Positions 4,068-59,057 are shown, counted from the stretch's first letter. The stretch is DNA of 64,000 bases from Chlamydiota bacterium (GCA_021772435.1 JAJFLZ010000018.1:199-64198); one strand, 5' to 3'. The notes: a model not told the origin generated them from the letters alone. Numbers and translations are program-made.

Positions 4068-4741
4068 AAACAATCATTCCCGGTGACTATCAAGAGACGC
4101 TCAAGTACGCCACAGAGCACTTTGTGCAGCTTGCAAACGCAGCGATTGAAAAACATGGCGCTTTTCACGTTGCGCTATCAGGAGGATCCACACCCAAAGC
4201 CATCTTTAAAATGCTGTCTGGCCCGCCGTATGCTAAACAAGTCGACTGGCAAAAAGTTTGGCTCTACTGGAGCGATGAGCGGTGCGTGCCCCACGACGAT
4301 CCTGAAAGTAACTACAAAATGGCGATGGATGCCGGCCTAAAATCTTTGCCAATTCCAGAAAACCAAATCTTTCGCATGGAAGGCGAGCTAGATCCGGACG
4401 AGGCTGCTACCCGCTACGAATCCATTCTGCCAAAAAAATTTGACCTCATCATGCTCGGCATGGGCGATGATGGACACACGGCCTCGCTCTTTCCAGACAC
4501 GGAAGCCCTAAACGAAAAAAATCGCCTTGTCGCTCCCAACTTTGTACCTCAAAAAGATTCTTGGCGCATCACCTTCACCTTCAAATGCCTTGCCGAAAAC
4601 GACCCCGTGATCTTCTACGTTCTTGGAGCCGGTAAAGCCGAGATCGTCAAAAAAGTTCTTACCGCCAAGGACTATCCTGCCAGCCACGTTCAAAATGCCC
4701 AGTGGATTTTGGATGCCGAAGCTGGTAAACTTATTGAATGA
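4064..4741 (+). CDS. pgl: 6-phosphogluconolactonase
   Basis: 225-aa ORF with motifs ALSGGSTP, WSDERCV and GMGDDGHTASLFP. It is coupled to opcA and tsaD by 4-nt overlaps. Confidence 0.93.
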   Translation: MKTIIPGDYQETLKYATEHFVQLANAAIEKHGAFHVALSGGSTPKAIFKMLSGPPYAKQVDWQKVWLYWSDERCVPHDDPESNYKMAMDAGLKSLPIPENQIFRMEGELDPDEAATRYESILPKKFDLIMLGMGDDGHTASLFPDTEALNEKNRLVAPNFVPQKDSWRITFTFKCLAENDPVIFYVLGAGKAEIVKKVLTAKDYPASHVQNAQWILDAEAGKLIE

Positions 4742-5697
4742 ATGTCCTTGGAATTGAAACAACCTGCGATGAAACAGCGATTGCTATTGTCAAAGATGGC
4801 AAGAAAATTTTATCAAATAAAATTGCCTCGCAAGCGGACCTGCACGCCATCTACGGCGGCGTCTTCCCAGAGCTTGCCTGCCGCCGCCACATTGACGTCA
4901 TCCTGCCCCTCATCGACGATGCCCTCCAAGAAGCCAACCTAACCTCTAACGAGATCGATCTCATCGCCGTGGCCCATGGCCCCGGCCTCATGGGAGCCCT
5001 CCTCATTGGCCTAACCACTGCCAAGACCCTCTCCATGGCCTGGAACAAACCCCTCATCGGCGTCAATCACATCGAAGCTCACCTTTACGCTTCCATGATG
5101 GATCACGATCCCATCCTGCCTGCCATTGGCCTTGTCCTCTCTGGCGGCCACACCACCCTCCTCGAAATCGAGGCTCTTGGCAAATACAAAAAACTCGGCG
5201 CCACAGTCGACGATGCGATCGGCGAGTGCTTTGACAAAGTCGCCCGCATGCTATCACTTCCCTATCCTGGTGGGCCTGAAATTGAAAAACTTGCTCTCTC
5301 TGGCAATCCACACGCCTACAGCCTAAAAGCTGGCCAAGTCAAAGGGCGCCCGCTCGACTTTTCCTTCAGCGGCCTCAAAACCAAAGTCCTCTACACTCTT
5401 AAAGAAGACAACATCAATCATGCTGACCTAGCTGCCAGCTTCCAGCATGCAGCGTTTTCTGACATCGTCAAAAAAACCAAACTAGCAGCAAAGCCAGGTC
5501 AAGCCATTTACCTGGGTGGCGGCGTCACTGCCAGCCGCTACTTACGCAAATTATTTGAAAAAGAAAATGTATACTTTCCAGGTCCAGATCTCTCGACAGA
5601 CAACGCCGCCATGATCGCAGGTCTTGGCTACCACGTTTTTAAGGCCAAAGGCCCCGACCGCTTGGACCTCGAAGCCCTGCCTAGAATTCCTTTCTAA
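4738..5697 (+). CDS. tsaD: tRNA N6-adenosine threonylcarbamoyltransferase
   Basis: 319-aa ORF with GIETTCDETA at the N-terminus, GVNHIEAHLY, and C-terminal STDNAAMIA, typical of the Kae1/TsaD family. Confidence 0.93.
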   Translation: MNVLGIETTCDETAIAIVKDGKKILSNKIASQADLHAIYGGVFPELACRRHIDVILPLIDDALQEANLTSNEIDLIAVAHGPGLMGALLIGLTTAKTLSMAWNKPLIGVNHIEAHLYASMMDHDPILPAIGLVLSGGHTTLLEIEALGKYKKLGATVDDAIGECFDKVARMLSLPYPGGPEIEKLALSGNPHAYSLKAGQVKGRPLDFSFSGLKTKVLYTLKEDNINHADLAASFQHAAFSDIVKKTKLAAKPGQAIYLGGGVTASRYLRKLFEKENVYFPGPDLSTDNAAMIAGLGYHVFKAKGPDRLDLEALPRIPF

Positions 5698-5754
5698 AAG
5701 TATTGAAATATATTCATTAATTGACTAAAATTTTTCTATAAAAGGAGAAATATT

Positions 5755-6528
5755 ATGTCATCTATTTCAAAAATCGCAAGCGCACTGCCTTCAGCAGCAC
5801 CAACTCAAAGCACTATCAACAAAATTGTTGAACTTGCGCGAAATAACATCTTTTTAACGGCTGTGATCACCTTAGGTGCAGGCTGTGCAATAGGTTATGC
5901 AGTGCATAAATATGTAATAACGCAAGAAAAACCAATACACTCATTAGAAAATAGCCCAGACATTCTAAAGCTGATCAAAACTCCAAATTTCAAATTCAAA
6001 GACTTTGCTGAAACCTGTAGGCTCGATGTGTATGAAATATTCCGATGTGTTTCCGAAGAAAAAGACACATTCAATAAAAATATTGATGACGCAGATTTCA
6101 AAAAACTACGAACCGATCCGAAAAGTGTTTTGCGCCAAAGCGCTAACATCGCCTACTTCCTCTTGGCCGATACAGATAATGAGCGATCAAACCGATTAGG
6201 CATAGTTAAAACAAATTTAGGATCTACAAGAGAAGCCATTAATCGACTTGTTAAACATAGCTACTTAGAGGACAAAAAGCATCCGATTTACAAATGGTGC
6301 ATCAATCATATCAAAACATCTATTCAAAAAGACGACATCCCATCTGCAGTTCAAACACTAAAAGCTCTAAAAAACTACCATTCTAATTGTAAATTCTGGT
6401 CTAAAATGTATGCTAGTACCCACGGGCATGAGCCTACATCCAATCTCCCACCCAGTATTTCAGAAATTATGGCTGATCTTTCTGATGATGAAAAAAGCAA
6501 ACTACCTAAGCCACTACCAGTTGATTAG
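5755..6528 (+). CDS. Hypothetical single-pass membrane protein (cassette 1 between tsaD tails)
   Basis: 257-aa ORF, AT-rich, with a strong SD aaggag 7 nt upstream of the ATG. It has one hydrophobic helix (IFLTAVITLGAGCAIGYAV). No motif recognised. Confidence 0.7.
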   Translation: MSSISKIASALPSAAPTQSTINKIVELARNNIFLTAVITLGAGCAIGYAVHKYVITQEKPIHSLENSPDILKLIKTPNFKFKDFAETCRLDVYEIFRCVSEEKDTFNKNIDDADFKKLRTDPKSVLRQSANIAYFLLADTDNERSNRLGIVKTNLGSTREAINRLVKHSYLEDKKHPIYKWCINHIKTSIQKDDIPSAVQTLKALKNYHSNCKFWSKMYASTHGHEPTSNLPPSISEIMADLSDDEKSKLPKPLPVD

Positions 6529-6542
6529 TAAAAACGTCCCTG

Positions 6543-6651
6543 TCTCTCGACAGACAACGCCGCCATGATCGCAGGTCTTGGCTACCACGTTTTTAAGGCC
6601 AAAGGCCCCGACCGCTTGGACCTCGAAGCCCTGCCTAAAATCCCTTTTTGA
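6543..6651 (+). repeat. Direct repeat: second copy of the tsaD 3' tail (copy 1 = 5589-5697)
   Basis: Read by eye, 105 of 109 nt are identical to 5589-5697. The four differences lie in the last 21 nt and keep the peptide EALP(R>K)IPF plus a stop codon (taa>tga). Confidence 0.95.
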
Positions 6652-6695
6652 CTGTATCTAAAACTTTTAGTAAACTTCTGTTAGGAGTTATTTAA

Positions 6696-8288
6696 ATGCC
6701 TAAAAAATTACCTATCGGTGTCCAGTCCATCGAGAAGCTTTTATCCGAAGACTTTATCTATGTTGATAAAACAGACAAAATTAAACAGCTAATTGACAGC
6801 GGAAGCCACTATTTCATAGCGCGTCCAAGGCGATTTGGAAAATCTTTATTTGTAAGCACACTAGAAGCTATTTTAAAAGGGAACAAAGACCTGTTTGCAG
6901 ATTGCAAAATCGCTAAAACAGACTATGACTGGGTAGAGCACCCAGTGATTCACTTCGACTTTGCCCAAATTCCAAATAAATCTACTGATGATCTAGAAAA
7001 TAGTATTAAGCGAAAACTAGAACACGTTGCTAAAGAACACAATATTTCCATCGAAATCCCTACCTTGCAAGAGGGGCTGATCAATCTAGTCAAAAAACTT
7101 GCAGAAAAAAACCAAGTAGCCATTCTGGTCGACGAGTACGACAAACCCAAGGTGGATCATCTAAATAATATCGAGATAGCAGATAGTAACCGCGATTTTT
7201 TACGTCGATTTTTTGGTACACTTAAAGGGTTAGATCAGCATCTAAAATTTGTTTTTTTTACAGGTGTTAGCAAATTCGCTCAGGTTTCTCTTTTCTCCGG
7301 CTTAAATAACTTAGAAGACCTGACAATGGACCCAAGTAGCTCTGAGCTGATGGGGTACACAAAAGACGAGCTCAAGGAAAATTTTAAAGAACACATTGCA
7401 GAATTAACAAAGAAAACAAATTGTGCCCCTGAACAGATTTTGAAGATGGTAAAAGAGTGGTACAATGGCTACTGTTTTTCTCAAAATTGTGTTCCTGTCT
7501 ACAATCCTTTTTCAACGCTTTCCTATTTTAAGCGAGGCATCTTTCACGGATACTGGTTTAGCACTGGCACTCCTGCATTCTTAATCGAACAAATCCGTAA
7601 AATGCCCATGCTGTCTACGCAACTCAGCGGCGCTTTATCTACAAGCTCGGAGCTACTAGATATTCTTTCCATGACAGATGTCGACCTAAACGCTTTGATG
7701 TGGCAAACCGGCTACCTAACCATTACAGCTTACGACCCCCAAACAGATCTATATACCCTTGATTTTCCGAACAAAGAAGTGCGAGGAGCCTTTTTTAATT
7801 CCTTGATTAGAGAATTTGCTAAACTCAATTTATCAGGTGTTACAGGCAATGCAAAAGCAATCTGCTCTCATTTAGCCAAATTAGATTTTGAAACTTTTTT
7901 TAAAACCATCAATGCGTACTACGCCAAAATCCCCTACCACCTGTTCACGCAAGCAAAAGAGGGATTTTATCACGCAGTATTTTTGTGCTTGATGGAAGGA
8001 ATAGGTTTACAAGTGAGGGCTGAAGATCCTACGAATATGGGCCGCCTGGATTTAGTCATCGAAACCGACCAAACCGTCTATATTTTTGAGCTCAAAGTCG
8101 ACAAAAGTGCAACTGTTGCTCTAGACCAAGCTGAACTTAATCGCTATTGTGAAAAGTATTCACACCAAAACCGCAATATTGCCATGATCGGCGTTAACTT
8201 TGCCACAGCGACTCGCAACATCTCCGATTGGGCAGTTAATCTTTATGCTCCGGATGCTAACTTAATCCAAAAATATGCGTTGCTTTAG
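6696..8288 (+). CDS. AAA-ATPase-like / PD-(D/E)XK nuclease family protein (cassette 2)
   Basis: 530-aa ORF. The N-terminus LPIGVQSIEKLLSEDFIYVDKTDKIKQLIDSGSHYFIARPRRFGKSLFVSTLE matches the predicted AAA-ATPase (PF09820-type) family that carries a C-terminal PDDEXK_9 domain (RLDLVIE...IFELKVD). SD aggag lies upstream. Confidence 0.8.
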   Translation: MPKKLPIGVQSIEKLLSEDFIYVDKTDKIKQLIDSGSHYFIARPRRFGKSLFVSTLEAILKGNKDLFADCKIAKTDYDWVEHPVIHFDFAQIPNKSTDDLENSIKRKLEHVAKEHNISIEIPTLQEGLINLVKKLAEKNQVAILVDEYDKPKVDHLNNIEIADSNRDFLRRFFGTLKGLDQHLKFVFFTGVSKFAQVSLFSGLNNLEDLTMDPSSSELMGYTKDELKENFKEHIAELTKKTNCAPEQILKMVKEWYNGYCFSQNCVPVYNPFSTLSYFKRGIFHGYWFSTGTPAFLIEQIRKMPMLSTQLSGALSTSSELLDILSMTDVDLNALMWQTGYLTITAYDPQTDLYTLDFPNKEVRGAFFNSLIREFAKLNLSGVTGNAKAICSHLAKLDFETFFKTINAYYAKIPYHLFTQAKEGFYHAVFLCLMEGIGLQVRAEDPTNMGRLDLVIETDQTVYIFELKVDKSATVALDQAELNRYCEKYSHQNRNIAMIGVNFATATRNISDWAVNLYAPDANLIQKYALL

Positions 8289-8289
8289 C

Positions 8290-8331
8290 AGCCACCTCAG
8301 CCTCGAAGCGCTCCCTAGAATTCCTTTTTGA
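8290..8331 (+). repeat. Direct repeat: third, shorter and more diverged copy of the tsaD 3' tail
   Basis: gaa gcg ctc cct aga att cct ttt tga versus tsaD gaa gcc ctg cct aga att cct ttc taa. All differences are synonymous, and weaker similarity extends about 12 nt further upstream. Confidence 0.8.
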
Positions 8332-9277
8332 GTATAGCAATCTGTTCTTTGATACCTTCTAAGCCTGAATCTGGATACAGATTGACATCGTATGGTTTTT
8401 TCCACTGCTTTTTATTGTTGATATGCTCAAGACGAAGCTCTTTGAGCCTATCAATATCGCCATCCCAAGCTTTTGAGATGCGGTGCGAAGGAGCATCTAA
8501 GCGAAAGAATTTCACATACTCGCCATTGTGTTTCTGAGCGGTTTCTTGATCTTTAAAATGAGTAGAATCTGCTCTAAACTTTTTGCAAGCAAAATAGAAT
8601 TCTTCTTTGAGTTTATCTTCAGCGATTTCAAAGTCATGCATCATCACAACATCAAGCTCACCAAATTTAGCGAAATGCTGAGGTAAACCTGCCTTGATTT
8701 GACCAGCTCTTAGCATCATGTATTCAGGCTTTTCTGTTTTTGAAAAATCGATAACAACCCGCGCTCCACCAATTGTTAAATAACCCTGATCAGTATCGAT
8801 TTGGCAAATGTTTTTATCCCCAAGATCCATTTTTAAACCATCAAGATCAGCGACCCCACTTTTCTCTACTGCTAAGTGGCTAAGAGCTGCCAAGGCGATG
8901 CGGTGAGCAAGTAGTTCTGTGCTTTCAATATTTTCGCCATCGCGGGACTGATCCATGATGCTTAGGGCACCAATATTGAGCAGCTTTTGCCCTGTTTGAA
9001 CCTTAAACAGGATCATACGACCCTTATCGTCCTTTCCAGGACCATCGATAATGGGGTTAATCAGCAAGCTGGTGCCCTCGCAAGGAGGTAATTTCAGCTG
9101 TTTGTCAAAAGTGACTGTGCCTAAGTTTCCTAAGATAACATTGGCTTCATTCAAAGCCTTGGCAACTAGACCACCACATACCTTCTCAAGGCTCATGGCG
9201 TGATCCTGAGCAAATATACGCACCTCCTCAATGGAGGCTGGCACTTTCGGCAAATGAGCTGGTACATCGTAAATCAT
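8315..9277 (-). CDS. Hypothetical protein, no recognisable domain
   Basis: 320-aa ORF with no TM or signal peptide. Its last five codons are antisense to tsaD tail copy 3. It is preceded by a consensus promoter (next feature). Confidence 0.7.
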   Translation of the reverse strand: MIYDVPAHLPKVPASIEEVRIFAQDHAMSLEKVCGGLVAKALNEANVILGNLGTVTFDKQLKLPPCEGTSLLINPIIDGPGKDDKGRMILFKVQTGQKLLNIGALSIMDQSRDGENIESTELLAHRIALAALSHLAVEKSGVADLDGLKMDLGDKNICQIDTDQGYLTIGGARVVIDFSKTEKPEYMMLRAGQIKAGLPQHFAKFGELDVVMMHDFEIAEDKLKEEFYFACKKFRADSTHFKDQETAQKHNGEYVKFFRLDAPSHRISKAWDGDIDRLKELRLEHINNKKQWKKPYDVNLYPDSGLEGIKEQIAILKKEF

Positions 9278-9283
9278 GCCGGT

Positions 9284-9312
9284 ATTATACCAAAAAAGCC
9301 GTATTTCGTCAA
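9284..9312 (-). promoter_or_regulatory. Sigma70-type promoter TTGACG-17-TATAAT predicting a leaderless mRNA for the 320-aa gene
   Basis: The minus strand reads aacTTGACGaaatacggcttttttggTATAATaccggcATG. The spacer is exactly 17 nt, and the ATG (9277) lies 6 nt after the -10 hexamer, where +1 is expected. No SD is present. Confidence 0.6.
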
Positions 9313-9453
9313 GTTAGATTTTGAGCTGAAAATAAATGCTTTCTATAAATTTAGCTAAGCTTGGCTCCTCAAATTTTTCGGCAAAAGCGAGGGGCATTAT
9401 CCATGAGAAACGACGCCGCTAAAAACCGGTATTTTGAATTTACTTCGGTATAC

Positions 9454-10356
9454 CTATTTTGTAGATGATAATAGATGTTTATTTGCATGACTCCAATCTT
9501 TACCAAATTGTATTGCCATCCATCGATTTAAAACTGAAATGATACTTTCTATCGATTCGGGAAGACTCATCAGGTTTTTTTGTGTCCTATTCTTTCTTAA
9601 ATAACTATTCCAATTTTTCTGAAGAGCTTCAAACTCATCATTATTAAATATGACTGGTAATTTACTAAGAAGGGTTTTTCTATGACGAAACACCAACTCA
9701 ACAGCTTTTTTCGCAAGTGGGCCATCTAAAGCAGATAACTGGATAAGTGAATAAATATCATGAAAATCTTTCATTCTCGTATTGCTACTTCCTCGGAACA
9801 CAACTGTTTCTAATTTCTCGGCAAAAATGAACTCTTTAGGATAACACTGCAACGTAATCCTGCTCTCAAAAAGTGGCCCTTTCGATGTTGCTGTTAAATC
9901 TATTGGGTGTTCAACCGATTCTACGCAATCACCAAATCCTAAATCCATGCGCATGGTCGTTCTTGTAGCTCCAAATAGAGCTCTAAGTGTAATTTCGGCC
10001 CCTGTATAAGCTAGTTGGGAATGGTCTAGGATTTTGATTTTAACCAATTCAAAAGCAAAGCTATCTTCCACGCTGATCTCGCAAATGGCTTGTAAAACGA
10101 TCTTCAGAGACTGCTGTGCGTTGGACAATTTACGCACAAAAAAATCAAGATCCATGGTTTCTCTGCCAATATAGATATATTTTGCTAAAAGAGTACCACC
10201 TTTAAGTATAAATTTTTCTTTATACGGAGATTGAGCTAAGCGAATTAAAAATCTCTCGAGAATTAAATTCCTCCAAAGCTCAGCAAAAGTGGTCTCTCTC
10301 TGCTTGGCCAAAGCTTTGATTTTCTCTTTGATTGATTGTTCAATGGCATTTTTCAT
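9454..10356 (-). CDS. abiEii: AbiEii/AbiGii-family nucleotidyltransferase toxin (type IV TA)
   Basis: 300-aa ORF. The N-terminal ERFLIRLAQSPYKEKFILKGGTLLAKYIYIGRETMDLDFF matches the DUF1814/AbiEii NTase signature (KGG...R.T.DLDF). An ATGA overlap couples it to the upstream antitoxin gene. Confidence 0.85.
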   Translation of the reverse strand: MKNAIEQSIKEKIKALAKQRETTFAELWRNLILERFLIRLAQSPYKEKFILKGGTLLAKYIYIGRETMDLDFFVRKLSNAQQSLKIVLQAICEISVEDSFAFELVKIKILDHSQLAYTGAEITLRALFGATRTTMRMDLGFGDCVESVEHPIDLTATSKGPLFESRITLQCYPKEFIFAEKLETVVFRGSSNTRMKDFHDIYSLIQLSALDGPLAKKAVELVFRHRKTLLSKLPVIFNNDEFEALQKNWNSYLRKNRTQKNLMSLPESIESIISVLNRWMAIQFGKDWSHANKHLLSSTK

Positions 10357-10949
10357 AACATGAAGGCCGAAATGTAAGAGGTTATGTCAACTCTAAGCTT
10401 TTTTGAATATCTTAAGAGCTTTTCGATGTCTGGCTTTTTATTTTTGCATTCTTTCAAATAAATTTGTAGTGCTTTTAACGCTGTTTCTTTGTCCAAATAG
10501 CGAAAGGCATCTACTATCGTGCGCTCGCGATCGAAAATTTTGAGTTTTCTATTATCGATTTTAACAGTTGTTTGGCCAAGAGTTATATTTCGCATCCGAA
10601 TGACACGAGTATTTTCCCTAACTGGAGCTGAAGTCGTATGTGCAACAGCAATCCAAAACTGTCGCATGATTTCATCAGTCAAATCGTAATAGCATAAAGC
10701 CGAAACTAGACAGATGACCCCATTGGGAATACTTAACGCAGTAACAGCAAGGTCTTCCCATTCAAATCCTTCGTGAAAATCGAAATTGTTAATTTTATAC
10801 ATCCCTCGGCTAATCCGTTCGATTTGCCCTTTTTCACAAAAATAAGCGAGCATTCTAGAAGGGATTCCTGCTTTTCGTCCTTCTGCGGAAGAGAACACCG
10901 CTTTTTTTGACAGAGCTTTTAGCGCTACTGCATACTTTGATTTTGCCAT
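10353..10949 (-). CDS. abiEi: AbiEi-family antitoxin / transcriptional regulator (type IV TA)
   Basis: 198-aa ORF. The N-terminal wHTH-like segment (AGIPSRMLAYFCEKGQIERISRGMYKI) is typical of AbiEi_4. It lies immediately 5' of abiEii with a 4-nt overlap. Confidence 0.8.
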   Translation of the reverse strand: MAKSKYAVALKALSKKAVFSSAEGRKAGIPSRMLAYFCEKGQIERISRGMYKINNFDFHEGFEWEDLAVTALSIPNGVICLVSALCYYDLTDEIMRQFWIAVAHTTSAPVRENTRVIRMRNITLGQTTVKIDNRKLKIFDRERTIVDAFRYLDKETALKALQIYLKECKNKKPDIEKLLRYSKKLRVDITSYISAFML

Positions 10950-10972
10950 ATTTAATATGTAACACAGAAACC

Positions 10973-11044
10973 CATTTATTACAATTGGGTGCTGCTATTA
11001 CATTTATTGCAAGGCATTTAGTTGTTATACACTTATTGTAAGGG
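10973..11044. promoter_or_regulatory. Three direct repeats CAYTTATTRYAAGG at 28-29 bp spacing upstream of abiEi (candidate operators)
   Basis: catttattacaattggg (10973), catttattgcaaggc (11001) and cacttattgtaaggg (11030) lie 24-95 nt upstream of the abiEi start codon (10949, minus strand). Confidence 0.4.
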
Positions 11045-11162
11045 TCTTATAATATTTAAGCCGTTTCAGTATCGCCATATTTAACGCTTTTGATGTTGAA
11101 AAATTTGAAGTGTACAGGATTATAGGGGTCTGCTATACTGGTCTAAAAATTGGAGTTGTCAC

Positions 11163-11324
11163 ATGGCTAAGAAGAAAACCCGTGAAGCAGTTAAACTTAA
11201 AAGCTCAGAGAGCGATCACATGTATTGGACGCGCAAGAATAAGAAGAAATGCCCAGAGCGCATGGAACGCAATAAGTATGATCCAACTCTTAGACGCCAC
11301 GTGCTTTACAAAGAATCTAAATAA
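11163..11324 (+). CDS. rpmG: 50S ribosomal protein L33 (below the ORF-track length cutoff)
   Basis: Hand translation gives MAKKKTREAVKLKSSESDHMYWTRKNKKKCPERMERNKYDPTLRRHVLYKESK (53 aa), which fits the L33 pattern (Y.T.KNK....R.E..KYDP..R.HV..KE.K). SD ggag lies upstream. Its TAA is followed directly by the lolC ATG. Confidence 0.85.
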   Translation: MAKKKTREAVKLKSSESDHMYWTRKNKKKCPERMERNKYDPTLRRHVLYKESK

Positions 11325-12776
11325 ATGAAATTTGAGCTTGGGCTCGCTAAAAAATATCTTTTGCCCAAACGCAGGCAATTAAGTGTCTCTTTAATTTGCT
11401 TGCTATCTGTTTTTGTCATCACACTTGTGGTGTGGCTACTTTTGACGTTTTTGTCTGTGATGAGCGGCATCGAAAAGGGCTGGCTCGCCAAATTAACATC
11501 ACTCAATGCCCCCTTACGCATTAATCCTACTGAAAAGTATTTTAACTCATATTACTACAAAATCGATTCAGTGTCTGGCGCCTCCCATTATTCTGTAAAG
11601 ACAATTGGTGAAAAGCTGCGCTCAGAATGGGTCGATCCATACGACACAGAAAGCGATATGGAAATCCCCCTCGATTGGCAGCTGCCCGAGAAAAATACTG
11701 AGGGAGAGTCGCTTGATCTGGTTAAGGAAGCTTTTGCAGCAGTCGACAAGGTGTCTCATACGGCAGCTCAAGAGTATGATATGAGCGGCGCCATGCTCAG
11801 GTTAAAACTGGTGCGTGGTGATTTCCACAGTTTTGTTACGCAAGCTGCCTATTTGACAACGTTTGCTGATCAAAGCCCTACAGTAAAAAAACTTCTTTCT
11901 GAGCCGATGGATGAAATTTTACCCAATGATCGGGGCGAACCAGGGATTTTGATCCCGAAAAGCTTTGAAGGTAATGGCGTGAGGCAAGGCGATCGCGGCT
12001 TTTTGTCGTACGGCAGCGGCTCTACAGGACAGGAGCAAAGATTAGGTGTGTACGTAGCCGGTTTTTACGACCCAGGCATTATGTCAATTGGCCCCAAATG
12101 CTTGCTCGTGCCCAAGTCTATCGCTGAGAATTTGCACACAGCCGGTGAAGCCTATACCCTCGATCGCACGCAAGCAACCGGTATTCAGGTTTGGTTTGAC
12201 GATTTGAAAGAGGCCCAGGCGATTAAGGCGAAGCTTCAAGACGAGTTTGAACAAAGGGGCATCGCACCGTATTTTACGATTACAACTTATCACGATTATG
12301 ATTTTGCTAAGGATCTGCTCCAGCAGTTTGAAAGCGATAAGATGCTGTTTACATTGATTGGCGTGATTATTTTGGTCGTGGCTGCTAGCAATATTATTTC
12401 ATCGCTGATTTTGCTTGTGAATAACAAGAAAAAAGAGATCGGTATTTTGCAGTCGATGGGAGCTAGCCGAGCTAGCATCACGATGGTGTTTGCCATTTGC
12501 GGGATCACAATTGGCCTTGTGAGCTCACTCGTTGGCGGCTTAGCTGCCTATTTGACATTGCATAACATTGATCATGTCGTGCAGTTTTTGAGCTGGATGC
12601 AGGGTCACGATATGTTTAATGCGCTCTTTTACGGCGCCAGCCTTCCAAACACTTTAAGCGCTGATAGTGTGAAATTCATTTTGATTGCAACACCGCTGAT
12701 CTCTCTTTTGGCAGGCCTTGTGCCGGCGATTAAAGCCTCCCGCATGCAACCGAGCGATATTTTGAGGTCGTCATGA
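11325..12776 (+). CDS. lolC: LolC/E-family lipoprotein-releasing system permease (FtsX-like)
   Basis: 483-aa ORF with an N-terminal TM, a large periplasmic loop, then the C-terminal FtsX domain (KKKEIGILQSMGASRASI and 3 TM). It lies upstream of lolD with a 4-nt overlap. Confidence 0.8.
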   Translation: MKFELGLAKKYLLPKRRQLSVSLICLLSVFVITLVVWLLLTFLSVMSGIEKGWLAKLTSLNAPLRINPTEKYFNSYYYKIDSVSGASHYSVKTIGEKLRSEWVDPYDTESDMEIPLDWQLPEKNTEGESLDLVKEAFAAVDKVSHTAAQEYDMSGAMLRLKLVRGDFHSFVTQAAYLTTFADQSPTVKKLLSEPMDEILPNDRGEPGILIPKSFEGNGVRQGDRGFLSYGSGSTGQEQRLGVYVAGFYDPGIMSIGPKCLLVPKSIAENLHTAGEAYTLDRTQATGIQVWFDDLKEAQAIKAKLQDEFEQRGIAPYFTITTYHDYDFAKDLLQQFESDKMLFTLIGVIILVVAASNIISSLILLVNNKKKEIGILQSMGASRASITMVFAICGITIGLVSSLVGGLAAYLTLHNIDHVVQFLSWMQGHDMFNALFYGASLPNTLSADSVKFILIATPLISLLAGLVPAIKASRMQPSDILRSS

Positions 12777-13405
12777 GCGTTTTAAAATGTAAAAATTTGA
12801 AAAAAGCTTATCCAGGGCTAGAGCTGCTCAAGGGCATTGATCTAGATATCCATAACGGACAGAGCCTCGCGATCATGGGTCCATCCGGCGTGGGTAAAAG
12901 TACGCTTTTGCATTTGCTCGGCCTTTTGGATGCGCCCGATGCTGGCACGATCGAAATTTTGGGCCAGCCGGTAAAAAAACGAGACTATCCCTTATTTCGC
13001 AATCGCCATATTGGCTTTGTGTTTCAGGCGTTTCATCTGCTTGAAGATGAGTCGGTGCTTACAAATGTTTTGATGCCAGCAAAAATTGGTCGGCTTGATC
13101 GTAAATCCAGAGCCTTAGAGCTGATCGAACGCGTTGGACTCAAGGGACGCGAAAAACAACTCGCTAAGCACCTATCTGGCGGGGAAAAACAACGCGTTGC
13201 AATTGCAAGGGCGCTTTGTAATGACCCTGATTTGATCTTTGCCGATGAGCCTACCGGTAACCTCGATGAGGGCTGCTCAAAAGAGATCCAAGATCTGCTA
13301 TTTCAAACCGCATGGAATAAAGCTCTTGTCATCGTCACACACGATACAAATTTAGCTAGTGCATGCGATAAAACCCTCACATTGAATCACGGCTTGCTAA
13401 AATAA
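12773..13405 (+). CDS. lolD: Lipoprotein-releasing system ATP-binding protein
   Basis: 210-aa ORF with Walker [13 protein letters not shown] signature [15 protein letters not shown], and Walker [13 protein letters not shown]. Confidence 0.88.
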
Positions 13406-35646: not shown

Positions 35647-36804
35647 ATGCATAAGCGATTTTTTGAACCTCCCGAAGGCAGCTATTTTTTATTCGGTCCC
35701 AGAGGCACAGGTAAATCTACTTGGCTCAAACGTCAATATCCAAAAGCCCTTTGGATCGATTTACTCGACCCGGAAACACTGCGCTTTTATGCAGCAGGCC
35801 CTGAAAGACTGCGCAGTATAATCGAAGAAAATCCAGCCACAAAGACAATCGTTATCGACGAAGTCCAAAAAGCACCCGATATTCTCAACGTCGTCCACAG
35901 TCTCATCGAAGAAAAACGTGGGTTCCAATTTGTTTTGACAGGATCTAGCTCTAGAAAACTGAAAAAACATGGTGTCAATCTGCTCGGTGGACGTGCTCTT
36001 TTACGTCACATGCCCACATTCTATGCAGCAGAACTAGGCGCGGATTTTGCGCTAGCAAAGAATTTAAAAATCGGGATGCTCCCTATTGTCAACGATTCGC
36101 CCCACCCTGCTGATGTTCTCAAAGCATATGCCGGCATCTATTTAAAAGAAGAAATTCAAGCTGAAGGGATTGTGCGCAATGTAGGCGACTTTGCTAGATT
36201 TTTAGAAACGATGAGTTTTTCTCATGCCAACCTTCTCAACGTTTCCAATATTTCTCGTGAATGCCATATCTCACGCAACACCGTGAACAGCTATCTACTC
36301 ATTTTGGAAGATCTACTCCTTTCTTTTCAGCTTTCTGTCTTTACCCGTAAAGCAAAAAGAGAACTTACACATCAGACCAAATTTTATTTTTTTGACTCTG
36401 GCGTTTATTACTCTATTCGTCCAAAAAATATTTACGATGTCGAAACTGAGCAAGAAGGTTTAGCCTTAGAAGGACTAGTAGCTCAGCATCTCAAAGCCTG
36501 GACCGATAGCCAACTAGAAAAACATCAATTGCATTTTTGGCGCACCAAAACACAAGTGGAAGTAGATTTTATCGTTTCAGGTCCTAGTTGTTTTCTGGCC
36601 ATTGAAGTTAAAAACAGTAAAACTGTGCACCCACAAGACACTCGCTCTTTGCAAATCTTCCTCGAGGACTATCCCCAAGCAACGCCCGTTTTACTCTATC
36701 GCGGTAATAAGCGGTACAAAGAAAAAAACGTTTTATGCTGCCCTGTGGATGATTTTTTAAAGTCCATTCATCCGGATAAAGCTATTGGCGGTGTTTTTTC
36801 TTGA
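35647..36804 (+). CDS. Orphan AAA+ ATPase (AAA_14 + DUF4143 type)
   Basis: 385-aa ORF with Walker A GPRGTGKST, Walker B VIDEVQ, and a C-terminal EVDFIV...IEVK nuclease-like motif. SD aggag lies upstream. Its 3' end overlaps convergent def by 23 nt. Confidence 0.8.
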   Translation: MHKRFFEPPEGSYFLFGPRGTGKSTWLKRQYPKALWIDLLDPETLRFYAAGPERLRSIIEENPATKTIVIDEVQKAPDILNVVHSLIEEKRGFQFVLTGSSSRKLKKHGVNLLGGRALLRHMPTFYAAELGADFALAKNLKIGMLPIVNDSPHPADVLKAYAGIYLKEEIQAEGIVRNVGDFARFLETMSFSHANLLNVSNISRECHISRNTVNSYLLILEDLLLSFQLSVFTRKAKRELTHQTKFYFFDSGVYYSIRPKNIYDVETEQEGLALEGLVAQHLKAWTDSQLEKHQLHFWRTKTQVEVDFIVSGPSCFLAIEVKNSKTVHPQDTRSLQIFLEDYPQATPVLLYRGNKRYKEKNVLCCPVDDFLKSIHPDKAIGGVFS

Positions 36805-42727: not shown

Positions 42728-43447
42728 ATGGATTTTTCCAAGCTAGAGAAAAAGAAACAACTTACCGCACTGAAATCACTACCTCCTTCACTTGCAAAAT
42801 GGTTTGATATCGAACTTACCTATACCAGCAATGCCATTGAAGGAAATTCCTTATCGAGAGAAGAAACTCGCCTCATCGTGGAAGAAGGTGCCATCATCGA
42901 AGGCAAATCTCTAGTTGAACACTTAGAAGCGACGAATCACACGAGGGCTTTAGATTTCATCAAAGGTTTAGTCAATCTCAAACCTCTTGAAATTACCGAA
43001 AACCACATCCTAGGAATTCATCATTCGATTTTACGTGGCATTGACGATGATAATGCGGGGAGATATCGACAAGTCATTGTTCGCATCTCAGGTTCTACAG
43101 TTGTTTTCCCCAACCCGATTAAAGTACCAGATCTCATTAGTGACTTCATGCAATGGCTTCACTCTTGCAAAGACCATCCCCTCCTACTAGCCGCCATGGC
43201 ACACTACAAATTGGTTACAATTCATCCCTTCATTGATGGAAACGGTCGCACAGCCCGCTTACTGATGAATTTGCTGGCTATGTCTGCGGGTTATCCCCCT
43301 GCTATCATCTCGCCAGAAAACCGCCTAGAGTACATCAACGCTTTAGAAAAAGCTCAACTTGGTGGATCGCTTGATGATTTCCTGCAGATCGTCTACACAG
43401 CCATTGACCGGTCCCTCGATATCTACTTAGAAGCAGCAGAAAACTAA
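42728..43447 (+). CDS. fic: Fic-domain protein (class II type with N-terminal inhibitory motif)
   Basis: 239-aa ORF with the canonical Fic motif HPFIDGNGRTARLLMN and an N-terminal TSNAIEGN, which fits the (S/T)xxxE(G/N) auto-inhibition motif. The ATG lies 1 nt after the nadK stop. It is visibly lower in GC than nadK. Confidence 0.9.
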   Translation: MDFSKLEKKKQLTALKSLPPSLAKWFDIELTYTSNAIEGNSLSREETRLIVEEGAIIEGKSLVEHLEATNHTRALDFIKGLVNLKPLEITENHILGIHHSILRGIDDDNAGRYRQVIVRISGSTVVFPNPIKVPDLISDFMQWLHSCKDHPLLLAAMAHYKLVTIHPFIDGNGRTARLLMNLLAMSAGYPPAIISPENRLEYINALEKAQLGGSLDDFLQIVYTAIDRSLDIYLEAAEN

Positions 43448-43476: not shown

Positions 43477-43560
43477 ATGCGTTGACAACGCCGTGTTTTA
43501 CTCTAAACCATGCGCTACCAACGCATGAAAACAGCCCAAACCATGCGTTGACAACGCATG
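43477..43560. promoter_or_regulatory. Three palindromic sites phased at exactly 33 bp (candidate operator array)
   Basis: atgcgttgacaacgc (43477-43491) is a partial palindrome. catgcgctaccaacgcatg (43509-43527) has 6-bp arms. catgcgttgacaacgcatg (43542-43560) is a perfect 9+1+9 palindrome. Copies 2 and 3 share the prefix aaacc. Confidence 0.7.
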
Positions 43561-43576
43561 ATTTTCATGGTATTAT
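43548..43576 (+). promoter_or_regulatory. Sigma70-type promoter TTGACA-17-TATTAT embedded in the perfect palindrome
   Basis: TTGACA (43548-43553) forms the centre of palindrome 3. After a 17-nt spacer, tattat lies at 43571-43576. The ATG at 43594 follows, with aagg 6 nt upstream. Confidence 0.55.
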
Positions 43577-43593
43577 TTGAAAAAAGGCCAAAG

Positions 43594-44850
43594 ATGGATA
43601 AAGAACTATTAAAACAAGTCATTGCAGATCAAAGAGAGTACAGTCCTCCACGCACGTTTTTTGATCGAACTCAAGCACATGCAATCAGAAGTTATATCCA
43701 TGACCCTAATATTCTGATTATCACCGGAATCAGGCGTTCAGGAAAATCGACGATCCAACGGAAATTGCAGCGGGAGATGCCTGAATCGGACTATTACTTC
43801 AATTTCGACGATGATCGCTTAGTCCGGTTTACAATTGAAGACTTCCAACTCCTCTTTGAAACATTTATTGAGCTGTATGGCAAACAAGCCACTTTTTATT
43901 TCGACGAAATACAAAACATTGAGGGCTGGGAGCGGTTCATTCGCAGGCTTTATGAACAAGGCTACAAAATCTTTATCACGGGTTCAAATGCCAAGTTGCT
44001 TAGCAAGGAGCTAGGCACTCACCTAACAGGCCGATGTATTCAAATCGAGATCTACCCTCTTTCATTCAAAGAGATCGTTTTGCACGAATATCCCACAGCG
44101 TTAAATAAACAAGCCATCTCCTCTACGGATAAAGGCATGCTTTTGCGCCTTTTTAACGATTACCTTCAGCATGGAGGCATTCCAGAATATTACAAGTTTC
44201 GCAAACCTGAATATTTGAAAGAACTCTACGAAGGAATTATTTACCGCGATATTGTAGCTAGATATAATATTGCAAACGAAAAGCCCCTTCGAGAACTCGC
44301 CTATTACTTTGCTAGCAATATTGGGAAAGAATTTAGTTATGCAAAGCTTACAAAAACTGTTGGTCTTAGTAGCCCTCACACAATTTCAAACTACTGCGAC
44401 TACTTAGAAAAATGCTATCTCTGTTTTTTTGTTAACCGCTATAGCCATTCTCTGAAAAAGCAAATCAAAAATAACAAAAAATGTTACATGATTGATCCTG
44501 CTCTTATCCGCACAGTAGGATTTCGAGTCAGCGAAGATAAAGGTCGATTGCTTGAAAACATCGTTTTTTTGCATTTAAAAATGCAGGGGTCTGAAATCTA
44601 TTTTCACAAAGGCCAAAGAGAATGTGACTTTGTCATCAGACAAGATAATCGCATTACTCAAGCTATCCAAGTCGCTACAAATCTTTCTAACGAAGATACA
44701 AGAGATCGTGAAATCAGCGGTCTGCTTGAAGCTATGGAAACTTACAACCTACAAAAAGGCCTGATCATCACCGAGAATGAGCCAGATAGCCTTAAAATAG
44801 GCAAGTCTCAAATCGAAATGATCCCCATCTGGAAATGGCTGCTGAATTAA
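43594..44850 (+). CDS. Orphan AAA+ ATPase (AAA_14 + DUF4143 type)
   Basis: It has Walker A GIRRSGKST, Walker B YFDEIQ, and a C-terminal ECDFVI nuclease-like motif. The start at ATG 43594 (MDKELLKQV) is preferred over the track start 43558, which lies inside the palindrome and promoter. Its stop overlaps the convergent cydB stop (4 nt). Confidence 0.8.
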   Translation: MDKELLKQVIADQREYSPPRTFFDRTQAHAIRSYIHDPNILIITGIRRSGKSTIQRKLQREMPESDYYFNFDDDRLVRFTIEDFQLLFETFIELYGKQATFYFDEIQNIEGWERFIRRLYEQGYKIFITGSNAKLLSKELGTHLTGRCIQIEIYPLSFKEIVLHEYPTALNKQAISSTDKGMLLRLFNDYLQHGGIPEYYKFRKPEYLKELYEGIIYRDIVARYNIANEKPLRELAYYFASNIGKEFSYAKLTKTVGLSSPHTISNYCDYLEKCYLCFFVNRYSHSLKKQIKNNKKCYMIDPALIRTVGFRVSEDKGRLLENIVFLHLKMQGSEIYFHKGQRECDFVIRQDNRITQAIQVATNLSNEDTRDREISGLLEAMETYNLQKGLIITENEPDSLKIGKSQIEMIPIWKWLLN

Positions 44851-47289: not shown

Positions 47290-48135
47290 TCAATCTAGCT
47301 TTGCCCCAAGAGCGTACTGCGTCATGTACAAATTTTTATTTTTAGCAAGTGTACGATCCCCTTTTTTCGCCCCTTTATAAATTGCGATAAAATAAGCAGT
47401 AGAATCGCATCCCCTATCGATTGCATATTGCAATGCGGTTTTAGAATTGTGCTCTTTCAGCATGGGATAATTGGCTTTTGCAAGCCACTTGATCACTCTG
47501 ACATCGTCTTGCTTAGCCGCGTAGTGCAATGGGCATTGATACGTCCATTCTGCAAAGAAGTTTTCCCACATTTGTTCTGTGATTTGAATATTGTGATTAA
47601 AAAGGTTTGGCAAGGCTCCGATGTCATAATCGGAAAGGACGTGAAACGGGCTTTTGCCATCAGGCAACTTTTGAGCCTTGCAAGCTTCCCAATCAGTAAA
47701 CGATTGAACAGCTAACTTTAAGAACGCCTCTTGCATCTCAGCGCGTTTAGGATGCACGATAAGGTAAAAAAGCGGTGTTACTCCATATCGGTCTTTTTGC
47801 ATCAGCCATTTTTTGCAATCTGATGACTTACATATTACCTCAAGTTGCTCTACATCATTTGCCAGAATGGCTTTATGAAGAGGATAAGCACCATAGTTGT
47901 CAACTTTTAGTACGTCATGTGGGGCAGTATGAATTTTTTTTAGCAATGCATCATGGTCAGAAAAGGCGGGCTTATTCGCGATTACCAATTTTGGCGCTTC
48001 GGACCGGCAAAGGCAAAACAGCCCAAGCAGTGCTACCAAACCAAAGACTGCCAAAGCAATCATGAGTGTACGATCTCTGGGTTTGGCTATCTTTTGCTGA
48101 ACTGATTGGGCAATACGCGAAATGGGCTTTGGCAT
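47290..48135 (-). CDS. N-terminally membrane-anchored ankyrin-like repeat protein (paralogue A)
   Basis: 281-aa ORF with a TM helix (LMIALAVFGLVALLGLFCLC) and ANK-like units (YGAYPLHKAILANDVEQLEVI; YGVTPLFYLI; DGKSPFHVLS; CPLHYAAKQDDVRVIKWLAKA..KTALQYAIDRG). Confidence 0.7.
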   Translation of the reverse strand: MPKPISRIAQSVQQKIAKPRDRTLMIALAVFGLVALLGLFCLCRSEAPKLVIANKPAFSDHDALLKKIHTAPHDVLKVDNYGAYPLHKAILANDVEQLEVICKSSDCKKWLMQKDRYGVTPLFYLIVHPKRAEMQEAFLKLAVQSFTDWEACKAQKLPDGKSPFHVLSDYDIGALPNLFNHNIQITEQMWENFFAEWTYQCPLHYAAKQDDVRVIKWLAKANYPMLKEHNSKTALQYAIDRGCDSTAYFIAIYKGAKKGDRTLAKNKNLYMTQYALGAKLD

Positions 48136-49049
48136 TAAAAATGTTTAAGAGCGTCGATTATAGCCTGGTTATTCCCAGCAAAAGCTAATGCTGATTTCCC
48201 GTCAGACGTTACAGATGATGGGCATCCCATTTTCCTGAGCCACTTAATGACATCTATTCTCTCTTTTTTGATTGCATAGTGTAGTGGATGTGGATGATTT
48301 GGCCAGCGCGCGCGCATCGCCTGCCATTGTAAGCGTTCGTATTCCTCGTCATCTCTCATGAAAAATTGTGACATATCAGGCAGCTCGACACCTTCTAAAT
48401 CAGAAACAAAATGAAGTGGGCTACGTCCATCTGAAAGGCGTTGCGCTAAAAGGCACTCTGTCCAAGTGAGTGTGTTTTGACATATTTCGATAAATGCACC
48501 ATCTGTTGTTTTACGGTGAGGACTTGCCATGTGATAAAATAGAGGGGGCGTACCAAAACGATCAGCATGTTGCATAAGCGCAATCAAGAGATTTTTCTCA
48601 CAGCTTTCTTGGAACTTGAGAAGCTGAGTTAAAGCATTGCTATTCCCTGCTAAAACAGCACAGTGTAAAATTGTTAGGCCGTAGTTTGGACTGACCTTCG
48701 TGATCTCATCGAGATCATTTAGCTCAAAAGATTTTCCTTCAATAATGGCTTTGTGGATGGGCAGACTAGAAAAATCTTCTGAATCAAGAATAAATTGAGG
48801 GTCTTTTTGCAGTTTCACTAGATAGTCGTCGAACTCAACAGGAGCAGTCTGGATAGCTGTGATTGGACTTGGGTTTTGCATACGCCAATAACAAATCCCT
48901 GCAGCGACAAGCGCAGCAAAAACTAAAAGAGCAAGAACATAAACGCGCCGACTTGAGTCTTGAGACTCCGTGAATGGCTTTATCTGAGCAGTCTGTATTT
49001 TCGTAACCATATGGTGCACTAAGATAATACAATCTTTTGATGATAGCAA
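48135..49049 (-). CDS. N-terminally membrane-anchored ankyrin-like repeat protein (paralogue B)
   Basis: 304-aa ORF with the same architecture (TM VYVLALLVFAALVAAGICYW; SLPIHKAIIEG; GLTILHCAVLAGNSNALTQLL; DGRSPLHFVS; HPLHYAIKKERIDVIKWLRKMG..KSALAFA). The stop overlaps the paralogue A start (TAATG). An alternative start is ATG 49010. Confidence 0.7.
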   Translation of the reverse strand: MLSSKDCIILVHHMVTKIQTAQIKPFTESQDSSRRVYVLALLVFAALVAAGICYWRMQNPSPITAIQTAPVEFDDYLVKLQKDPQFILDSEDFSSLPIHKAIIEGKSFELNDLDEITKVSPNYGLTILHCAVLAGNSNALTQLLKFQESCEKNLLIALMQHADRFGTPPLFYHMASPHRKTTDGAFIEICQNTLTWTECLLAQRLSDGRSPLHFVSDLEGVELPDMSQFFMRDDEEYERLQWQAMRARWPNHPHPLHYAIKKERIDVIKWLRKMGCPSSVTSDGKSALAFAGNNQAIIDALKHF

Positions 49050-57980: not shown

Positions 57981-58046
57981 ATCTTTTACAATACTGAGTA
58001 AAAGAGTTATTTGCCAGCTAACCTGCGATCTGTTAAAATCGGCGTT

Positions 58047-59057
58047 ATGGAAAAGAATACTCCCCTCACTATTTGTAATACTCAAATTCATCCTGGCGAG
58101 CGCATTACAATCGCTGTACCAACACCTGAAATCTACACATGCGCGCCCATGCATATGCCGATACATATCATCCACGGCAAGTATGCCGGACCCAAATTGC
58201 TCATTTGCGCAGCGATTCACGGTGATGAAATTAACGGCATCTCAATTATTGAACGCTTGTTAAATCTGCGCCTTTTAAAAAAATTAAGAGGCACATTGAT
58301 CGCTGTTCCCGTCATCAATATTTTTGGCTTGATCAACCAATCCCGTTTATTGCCCGATATGTACGATTTAACAACGAGTTTTGGCAAAAATGAGCATGGC
58401 TCTTTTGTCGGAAGACTAGCCCACCTGCTAGAGACAGAAATTTTAAACCAAGCCACTCATTGTGTTGACTTACATACAGGCGAGCCGCATAGGCACAGTC
58501 TACCACAGATTCAAACAAACCTTGACCATCCAGAATGTCAAACCATGGCCGAATGTTTTGGTGCTCCGCTAGCTATCCACACCGAATCGAAAAGAGGTTT
58601 ACTCTGGCAGCTTTATCAAGACTCCCCCATACCTACTGTCATTTACGAAGGAGGAGAGGCCTTAAGGCTTGATGAGCTCACGATCCGTACAGGTGTCAAG
58701 GGAATCACACGTATGATGCGCCATCTTGGCATGCTAAAAGAGACTGTAGCATCAGAGGTCAAACCGTTAACAGTAAGAGGAACATCTTCTTGCTGGGCAC
58801 CCACCAGTGGCCTTTGCAAACTTAAACAGCGCGTCGGAGCTTATGTTAAAAAAGGGACCGTTATAGCAGATATCTCCGATCCGTTTGGCTCAGTTCAAAC
58901 AACGCAAATCACATCTCCAACTGACGGCTTAATCATCTCCCATAACAACCTACCCCTTGTCAACGAAGGTGAAGCCGTATTTGAAATCGCTGAATACCAC
59001 ACAAGTGAAAAAATGATCGAACACATGGAAAGTTGGCAACACCAAGAGCACTCATGA
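58047..59057 (+). CDS. Succinylglutamate desuccinylase/aspartoacylase (AstE-AspA, M14-like) family protein
   Basis: It has the zinc motif AAIHGDEINGI and the later DLHTGE. The start at ATG 58047 (MEKNTPLTI) is preferred over the TTG at 58011. Confidence 0.75.
   Translation: MEKNTPLTICNTQIHPGERITIAVPTPEIYTCAPMHMPIHIIHGKYAGPKLLICAAIHGDEINGISIIERLLNLRLLKKLRGTLIAVPVINIFGLINQSRLLPDMYDLTTSFGKNEHGSFVGRLAHLLETEILNQATHCVDLHTGEPHRHSLPQIQTNLDHPECQTMAECFGAPLAIHTESKRGLLWQLYQDSPIPTVIYEGGEALRLDELTIRTGVKGITRMMRHLGMLKETVASEVKPLTVRGTSSCWAPTSGLCKLKQRVGAYVKKGTVIADISDPFGSVQTTQITSPTDGLIISHNNLPLVNEGEAVFEIAEYHTSEKMIEHMESWQHQEHS

Follow-up and report, generated by a model that had tools for sequence, protein, structure and literature searches.

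In a 64-kb stretch of DNA from a chlamydia-like organism (the window; all coordinates are given in window numbering), the gene tsaD is intact and is followed by two further copies of its own 3' end, which alternate with genes that the nearest relatives lack at this position. It is well supported that this region arose by serial insertion in at least three layers, namely a unit containing one open reading frame (ORF A), a second unit containing another (ORF B), and a stretch with ORF C and an AbiE gene pair, where the nearest relatives have an empty site. For the mechanism, the explanation that we tentatively place first, without claiming that it is established, is that DNA entering from another strain, and taken from the corresponding site there, recombined with the chromosome inside the tsaD tail.

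The three tails comprise the last 109 nt of tsaD itself (copy 1), a repeat of the same length (copy 2) and a 42-nt relic (copy 3; Table 1). Alignment reproduced the 105/109 identity of copies 1 and 2 that the original prediction, a note made from the sequence alone, had reported. The two are offset by 954 nt and are identical over 95 nt, after which 4 of the remaining 14 positions differ (5684 G/A, 5688 T/C, 5694 C/T, 5696 A/G), so that the differences are clustered at the end (0/95 vs 4/14, Fisher p = 1.8e-4). Past the stop codon, copies 1 and 2 are essentially unrelated. The third, diverged tail proposed at 8290-8331 was also recovered, with 31/42 matches to copy 1 and 27/31 in its core (8301-8331). 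It is the third-best ungapped tail match on both strands of the window, where nothing else reaches 26/42, and a tblastn search of 9 kb of downstream DNA also finds it (E 9e-4). A degenerate 31-nt pattern, CCTCGAAGCNCTNCCTANAATNCCTTTNTNA, matches exactly the three tails with <=3 mismatches, and gave 0 matches in 100 shuffles. Upstream of copy 3, in the 3' end of ORF B, no tsaD homology was detected (score 10 vs 8.0 +/- 1.3 for shuffled sequence, with 51/500 shuffles reaching it). Translation bears out that each of the three copies encodes EALP(R/K)IPF* and closes with a stop in frame, and a 9-nt block, CCTCGAAGC, is common to all three at -31 from the stop. The start points of the relics differ (-109 for copy 2, -42 for copy 3), and the DNA between the copies, 845 nt and 1638 nt long, is AT-rich and unrelated.

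The interval that follows tsaD is absent from the relatives L082, L083, L085 and L177 (a TARA metagenome contig), which shows that DNA was inserted after tsaD, as originally proposed. In these relatives, with TsaD identities of 92, 79, 71 and 68%, rpmG lies 227, 83, 273 and 43 nt after tsaD, respectively, and the site is empty; in the window the distance from the tsaD stop to rpmG is 5465 nt. The length and C-terminus of TsaD are the same in L082 and L083, and L168 and L169 carry the post-stop sequence of L082 over the 54 nt available. Another relative, L084 (ENA ERZ25038558; TsaD 89%), has a different gene 143 nt after the stop (L084:868-1290), in which a U-box-like motif, ICPITRQLMLHPVIAADGETYE, is recognizable by eye; the contig ends inside this gene. 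The nearest relatives of TsaD are Chlamydiia or Parachlamydiales sequences throughout. Chlamydial genomes have the gene order tsaD, rpmG, FtsX-type permease and ABC ATPase. In the window, upstream of tsaD are zwf, opcA and pgl, of which pgl is adjacent to tsaD and overlaps it. The G + C content of the inserted stretch is 39%, vs 44% for the whole window and 46-53% for the flanking genes (52.6% for tsaD), and this low-G + C island ends where similarity to L082 restarts (11099). There is no fourth tsaD tail at the right end of the island, and the first ~155 nt of the L082 intergenic region have no counterpart in the window.

Table 1. Features of the tsaD-rpmG region in the 64-kb window.
Feature	Position	Strand	Description
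tsaD	4738-5697	+	Intact, 319 aa; Pfam PF00814 (TsaD), E 5e-87; C-terminus ...LEALPRIPF as in relatives
Tail copy 1 (T1)	5589-5697	+	Working 3' end of tsaD; 5589-5683, block identical to copy 2; 5684-5697, diverged end
Inserted stretch (tsaD-to-rpmG accessory patch)	5698-11098		5.4 kb, from the tsaD stop to the rpmG promoter; ORF A, ORF B, ORF C and AbiE pair
Spacer before ORF A	5698-5754	+	15.8% G + C; promoter-like TTGAAA-17-TAAAAT (5703-5731) and AGGAG (5743-5747); consensus matches, putative
ORF A	5755-6528	+	257 aa; one hydrophobic stretch near the N-terminus (by eye); 37.7% G + C
Junction from ORF A stop to copy 2	6529-6542	+	14 nt
Tail copy 2 (T2)	6543-6651	+	Displaced or passenger tsaD end; 6543-6637 = 5589-5683; end reads AAA ATC CCT TTT TGA
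Spacer before ORF B	6652-6695	+	AGGAG (6683-6687); promoter-like TTGACT-17-TAAACT (6648-6676) starting inside the end of copy 2; consensus match, putative
ORF B	6696-8288	+	530 aa, full length, DUF1703-type; AAA-ATPase_like PF09820 (E 8e-58) and PDDEXK_9 PF08011 (E 1e-16); 39.8% G + C
Tail copy 3 (T3)	8290-8331	+	42-nt relic encoding SHLSLEALPRIPF*; core 8301-8331
ORF C	8315-9277	-	320 aa; no family match
AbiEii toxin	9454-10356	-	Type IV toxin-antitoxin/abortive-infection pair with AbiEi; Pfam PF08843; PADLOC AbiEii 2e-72
AbiEi antitoxin	10353-10949	-	Pfam PF13338; PADLOC AbiEi 2e-78
Right end of inserted stretch	10950-11098		Similarity to L082 restarts at 11099, just upstream of rpmG
Conserved right flank	11163-13405	+	rpmG 11163-11324, FtsX-type permease 11325-12776, ABC ATPase 12773-13405 (Pfam)

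Such an arrangement could be an artefact, in which reads of co-occurring strains were collapsed or chained into one contig. The source is apparently a metagenome-derived contig of 66 kb, and the 95-nt repeat exceeds the usual k-mers, so that the path across it rests on read evidence. Logan unitigs of runs SRR15505513-18 are 100% identical to the window, and their breakpoints coincide exactly with the edges of the 95-nt repeat. One of them (L081) leads from tsaD, by way of copy 1, into ORF A; two (L170 and L171) comprise the end of copy 1, ORF A and the start of copy 2; and two (L166 and L167) begin with the end of copy 2, span ORF B, copy 3, ORF C and AbiE, and continue past rpmG for 11 kb. 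All four junction types and copy 3 are present in unitigs from five runs, which may share the sample series of the source contig. Because the unitigs reproduce every junction, an artefact of a single assembler is argued against; moreover, two long contigs contain copy 3, and the copies differ from each other, so that they do not represent a simple collapse. We consider an artefact extremely unlikely. One of the unitigs, L170 (SRR15505517_444027), corresponds to window 5589-6572, and its 984 nt equal 954 + 30, the first 30 nt being the same as the last 30 nt, as in a cycle of a k = 31 graph. It could reflect an ORF A unit in circular or tandem form, or else an exit branch that was poorly covered by reads.

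The differences between the tails carry information on their history. Over the last 9 codons, the three copies have 6 variable sites, of which 4 are synonymous, one is an R/K exchange and one is TAA/TGA. For comparison, 19/72 of the single-base changes in these codons (about 26%) are synonymous, and a stop is kept in 2/9 changes to TAA. That 4/5 sense-codon differences are synonymous has a P of about 0.02 under neutral decay (binomial from 19/72), which is lowered further by the 2/9 stop chance. Since the differences are mostly synonymous and the stops are kept, the sequences indicate that the tail ends diverged while serving as working gene ends, in line with the suggestion that the tails were once functional ends of tsaD. 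The five codons on the 5' side of copy 3 show three non-synonymous differences.

Copy 2 is, judging from the alignment, a mosaic of the resident allele and a different end, with the boundary at 5683/5684. Its 95-nt block matches copy 1 at 95/95 positions and the nearest relatives at 78-80/95. As this block equals the genome's own allele, copy 2 is not simply an old or a foreign tail, and the idea that the old tail had been displaced downstream as copy 2 was weakened. The switch from 0/95 to 4/14 differences, together with the resident-allele block, points to 5683/5684 as a probable crossover point or edge of a gene-conversion tract, and not to uniform drift. Copy 1 shares 38/42 positions with the tail of L168, copy 2 shares 36 and copy 3 shares 33; copies 2 and 3 have TTT TGA in common, and both copy 1 and L168 have TTC TAA. 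The original prediction envisaged an element that integrated and brought a replacement tail. The insertion is supported, but for an element-supplied tail there is no sign, copy 1 being the one most like the tails of the relatives. Polarising the native tail end by means of the relatives was also tried, and the differences (1-3/14 nt) are too few to decide.

Within the insert, the layout between the tails is as compact as had been described, with one AT-rich ORF per interval, a Shine-Dalgarno-like sequence of its own (AGGAG) upstream of each, and a stop codon within 15 nt of the next tail: the ORF A stop (6528) lies 14 nt ahead of copy 2 and the ORF B stop (8288) 1 nt ahead of copy 3. Promoter-like hexamers also precede both ORFs (consensus matches, putative). 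The join before copy 2 (6539-6554) makes an inverted repeat, CTGTC-TCTC-GACAG, that is followed by a T-rich run on the minus strand and is scored as terminator-like on that strand; copy 1 is without the left arm of this repeat.

No family was assigned to ORF A in Pfam, NCBIfam or PADLOC, and PHROGs returned a marginal match to phrog_7208, of unknown function (E 0.0095). A search among 5.8 billion proteins retrieved only ORF A itself, which makes it an ORFan, and its AlphaFold model (pLDDT 41) is too poor for a fold search. ORF B has a C-terminus inside the length range of its family. The same SRR155055xx runs contain, in their Logan assemblies, at least two paralogues with 58% and 55% identity, and no flanking repeats were found at these two. 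Its DNA is 67% identical to a gene on a Simkania plasmid, and the DUF1703 family is described as showing expansions and horizontal spread in intracellular bacteria, with plasmid-borne copies in Simkania (PMC6387759). The possibility that ORF A and ORF B are diverged duplicates of each other was dismissed, as they share no similarity. Tail duplication as a habit of DUF1703 or of accessory genes was likewise rejected: the two ORF B paralogues and six other accessory loci in the window are without flanking repeats.

The third layer (ORF C and AbiE) abuts the stop codon of copy 3 and has no tail of its own. The last five codons and stop of ORF C (LKKEF*) are the antisense of copy 3 (window 8315-8332). 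The single homologue of ORF C, P0246, is distant (E 8e-9), and the genomic context of its gene differs. As ORF C stops four residues short of this protein, the join between copy 3 and ORF C has cut the 3' end of the gene. ORF C was considered as a cryptic integrase and rejected, having no family match and no similarity to the integrase of the Criblamydia plasmid described below; its AlphaFold model (pLDDT 44) is too poor for a fold search. In L172:7985-11244, the P0246 gene is located directly upstream of an AstE/AspA-like gene and an MFS transporter gene, and the same AstE/AspA-like and MFS pair is present at window 58011-60301, where it has no ORF C-like neighbour.

The AbiE pair shows 72.5% DNA identity over 1.5 kb to a plasmid of Criblamydia sequanensis (NZ_LK031773.1, 21620-23079; L181). 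On this plasmid, the AbiE copy is found ~0.65 kb from a site-specific integrase, with phage-like genes (terL, DNA methylase) on its other side. Relatives of AbiE and ORF B are carried by Criblamydia, Protochlamydia and Simkania plasmids and, because of these plasmid relatives, part of the cargo can be assigned to the chlamydial mobile gene pool. No similarity of the island to phages was found.

To see the locus in a wider context, 152 other tsaD loci from genomes and metagenomes were screened for a repeat of their own tail <=10 kb downstream. Cargo bracketed by tsaD tails was found in 0 of these, on which grounds tsaD was rejected as a widespread serial target, and so far this arrangement is unique to the present genome. 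In L001:2845-4509, L003:5086-6906, L006:11020-11992 and L014:11041-11832, the gap between tsaD and rpmG is occupied by ORFs of 94-238 aa that are lineage-specific and not related, some of them lying on the minus strand, and in no case are tail copies present. From these comparisons, the gap is a recurrent variable site in the phylum, and since the cargo of L001, L003, L006 and L014 is without tails, as is that of L084 as far as its contig reaches, gene turnover there usually leaves no tail. The presence/absence polymorphism suggested in the original prediction was seen, as empty sites and as different cargo, and the variable number of cargo-bracketing tails was not. As a separate observation, L177 holds five minus-strand ORFs, one of them weakly F-box-like, between pgl and tsaD (L177:1862-5549).

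The only positive in the whole screen was L013 (JBEIFH010000002.1, a distant Chlamydiia metagenome assembly), in which the tsaD tail is tandemly triplicated (L013:10889-11219; unit of ~112 nt, 89% matches). The first repeat junction supplies the stop (TCA|TGA), and the gene ends earlier than the frame of the third copy would. Because this triplication holds no cargo, a tsaD tail can evidently duplicate without any element. The same may be asked of the window: the tsaD end could have been copied in place, in tandem as in L013 or by templated break repair, with genes captured at that time or later and with conversion keeping the core identical as the edges drift. Such a local origin would suit the core of copy 2, which equals the resident allele and loses similarity at both edges, as well as the TTT TGA of copies 2 and 3 vs the TTC TAA of copy 1 and L168. 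A simple head-to-tail tandem duplication is what L013 displays and is not what is found here, where 845 and 1638 nt of foreign DNA separate the copies. Foreign genes would have to land exactly between copies twice, and the sequences behind the stop codons of the copies are essentially unrelated. In addition, the three changes that an outgroup comparison assigns to copy 2 (R to K, TAA to TGA and a synonymous one) look constrained, although on this account copy 2 was never functional here. We consider local duplication quite unlikely.

Recombination within the tsaD tail, the explanation placed first, would proceed as follows. The incoming DNA would carry its own tsaD end, as it would derive from the same chromosomal site in another strain. 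It would be joined by a single crossover with a circularised fragment, or by one homologous and one illegitimate join, and each event would keep tsaD whole and add a single tail next to the newly acquired gene. The 95 nt common to copies 1 and 2 would be the place of the crossover or a tract of gene conversion at a later time, and older relics would have been eroded by deletion, as exemplified by the 42 nt to which copy 3 is now reduced. A dedicated recombinase would not be needed. We infer both this recombination route and the order of events. The model would account for the signature of selection in the tails, the mosaic structure of copy 2, the irregular junctions, the third join that cuts a gene, the lack of a recombinase and the tail-less turnover elsewhere. 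Irregular joins fit better than one fixed site, because the starts at -109 and -42 differ and the third layer cuts the 3' end of ORF C. The data do not demonstrate a single fixed crossover site, since the relic starts differ and the third layer abuts a stop codon without a tail of its own.

Several observations weigh against recombination within the tail. The joins are located 14 nt and 1 nt from the stops of the upstream ORFs, which random illegitimate joins would rarely achieve without later trimming. The donor needs an identical 95 nt and yet a last 14 nt that is 29% different; a conspecific donor with a mosaic tail, or later gene conversion, is therefore required. No donor genome with a tsaD-ORF A or tsaD-ORF B arrangement was found, and ORF A had no relatives at all in the search described above. 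Finally, the classical trace of integration by an integrase is just such a duplicated gene 3' end flanking the insert.

The latter possibility, accretion by a site-specific recombinase, supposes that elements with replacement tsaD ends inserted serially, that the enzyme is encoded elsewhere or was lost, and that the elements decayed to one gene each. The locus has the footprint expected of such an array, with direct repeats of a gene 3' end, an intact tsaD and an empty site in relatives. Similarity is highest in the copy nearest to the gene and erosion is most advanced in the farthest one, the shared CCTCGAAGC could be the crossover core, and the closest DNA relative of the AbiE pair is the Criblamydia plasmid copy next to an integrase. 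Since duplication of the 3' end is its hallmark and chlamydial plasmids carry integrases, accretion is still plausible. A Pfam scan of all sizeable ORFs in the 64 kb, however, detected no integrase, transposase or other recombinase, as had been noted from the outset, and remnants of int, xis or mob are missing, with spacers of 1-57 nt only. The left edges of the relics differ, and with start points at -109 and -42 and CCTCGAAGC at -31, a common crossover core requires a 78-nt host-identical arm on the ORF A unit; the 95 nt of copy 2 correspond to the host allele and not to an arm borne by an element.

Folded as single-stranded DNA, the three tails had z-scores of -0.95, -2.15 and +2.27 without a conserved hairpin, and they have no Rfam match. 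An attC-like or otherwise structured site was rejected, as the folds are not significant, and no inverted-repeat site was found. Free copies of the tsaD tail on mobile DNA did not turn up, neither in IMG/VR contigs nor in chlamydial PLSDB plasmids. A Tn7-like insertion, which would bring TnsA/B/C-type genes, terminal repeats and a 5-bp target duplication directly behind the stop codon, is not supported, as there are no transposase families in the window and the repeats here are 42-109 nt of coding sequence. Cargo together with a tail was seen at 0/152 other tsaD loci. Accretion requires a recombinase outside the window, two debris-free one-gene elements, and either different cores or a long host-identical arm. 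We consider it possible but unlikely.

The likeness to integrons noted at first holds for the compact layout and fails for the machinery, as there is neither an attC fold nor an IntI-type tyrosine recombinase next to the array. An active cassette system could nonetheless be imagined, in which tails recombine with each other and so release units of 1-2 kb, made up of a tail, a promoter and an ORF, as circles that re-insert into tsaD, the gene end taking the place of attC. One ORF per interval, each with promoter-like and AGGAG sites, and the cycle-like 984-nt ORF A unitig in SRR15505517 would agree with this. That unitig begins at the first base of the repeat, however, as a chromosomal branch combined with low coverage would give. 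The tsaD allele without ORF A (...LPKIPF) is absent among 15 billion proteins, and ORF A occurs nowhere else. Furthermore, the ORF B paralogues have no tails, a recombinase and an attC-like fold are lacking, and the pattern is absent from other genomes. An active system of this kind is very unlikely. Hardly any likelier is the broader proposal that the tsaD tail is a reusable docking site, at which circles composed of a tail, a promoter and an ORF would enter tsaD again, either in their cell of origin or in a different one, via host recombination or a recombinase encoded elsewhere. If true, this would amount to an integron-like cassette economy without attC or IntI, of which the cycle-like unitig L170 would be the trace.

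Elsewhere in the window, further accessory genes stand alone among housekeeping genes, namely two AAA_14 + DUF4143 ATPases, one ATPase_2 protein and one Fic-domain protein (35647-36804, 43558-44850, 54426-55949, 42728-43447). No repeats of neighbouring genes were found around these. Two neighbouring ankyrin-repeat genes are present at 47290-49049 on the minus strand, and effector-like families of intracellular bacteria typically have such genes. At 989-1150, an 81-nt tandem direct repeat (72% identity) is contained in a minus-strand protein-kinase ORF (1-1338) that runs off the start of the window.

Among known systems, integration hot spots between core genes are filled by homologous recombination in their flanks. 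The tsaD-rpmG gap resembles these in that it holds differing lineage-specific genes, or none, among chlamydial genomes; ordinary exchange of flanks leaves no duplicated gene end, however, and the two relics are the unusual part here. Staphylococcal SCC elements insert serially at the 3' end of rlmH (orfX), where they form composite arrays with short repeats that include the last codons, and some members are without recombinase genes. In contrast to the present locus, SCC elements rely on Ccr serine recombinases, have 15-18 nt repeats at one fixed position and are many kilobases in size.

Insertion of e14 or phage 21 into the 3' end of icd in E. coli leaves a working icd and, downstream, the pseudo-end icdC, and the ends differ mainly by synonymous or conservative changes, according to the passage of PMC13626634 that follows Hill et al. 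(1989). The window shares with this case an intact housekeeping gene and a second copy of its 3' end with mostly synonymous or conservative differences. Unlike e14, a 15-kb prophage with its own integrase and one attachment core, it has one-gene units of 0.95 and 1.7 kb, no integrase in 64 kb, three copies and variable junctions. Islands related to ICESt1/ICESt3 at the 3' end of fda in Streptococcus thermophilus undergo tandem accretion and decay to cis-mobilizable elements, as stated in the section of PMC5704250 that draws on Pavlovic et al. (2004). Stacking at one gene end, repeats that include the gene end and decayed members without integration genes are similar here, whereas the ICESt arrays have recognizable att cores at a fixed position and usually a functional element or integrase in the array or genome. 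With class 1-type integrons the locus has in common compact, head-to-tail single-gene units between repeats; it differs in having no IntI, attI or attC-like folds and in that its units appear to have their own putative promoters, vs mostly promoterless cassettes.

No report of the tsaD 3' end as a serial insertion target was found in the literature, so that the remark that it had not been described as such still applies. The only related record found concerns Macrococcus prophages 'between TsaD and ABC transporter', which use an intergenic att site (PMC6008420). By analogy with icd/e14, fda/ICESt and rlmH/SCC, the locus is best regarded as a genomic-island footprint of an ordinary type, in this case at a gene for which none had been reported, and not as an integron.

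The locus provides a record, in datable layers, of how an environmental chlamydia gained genes, comprising three acquisitions with relic ends that record the joins. Few such footprints are known in the phylum, and the routes of horizontal transfer there are poorly understood. If a recombinase that targets the tail does exist, tsaD would be a further docking gene besides icd, fda, rlmH and the tRNA genes; if there is none, the locus would be a clean example from nature of an insertion that is driven by homology and duplicates the end of a gene. In both cases, the gap between tsaD and rpmG is flagged as a variable site in chlamydial pangenomes.

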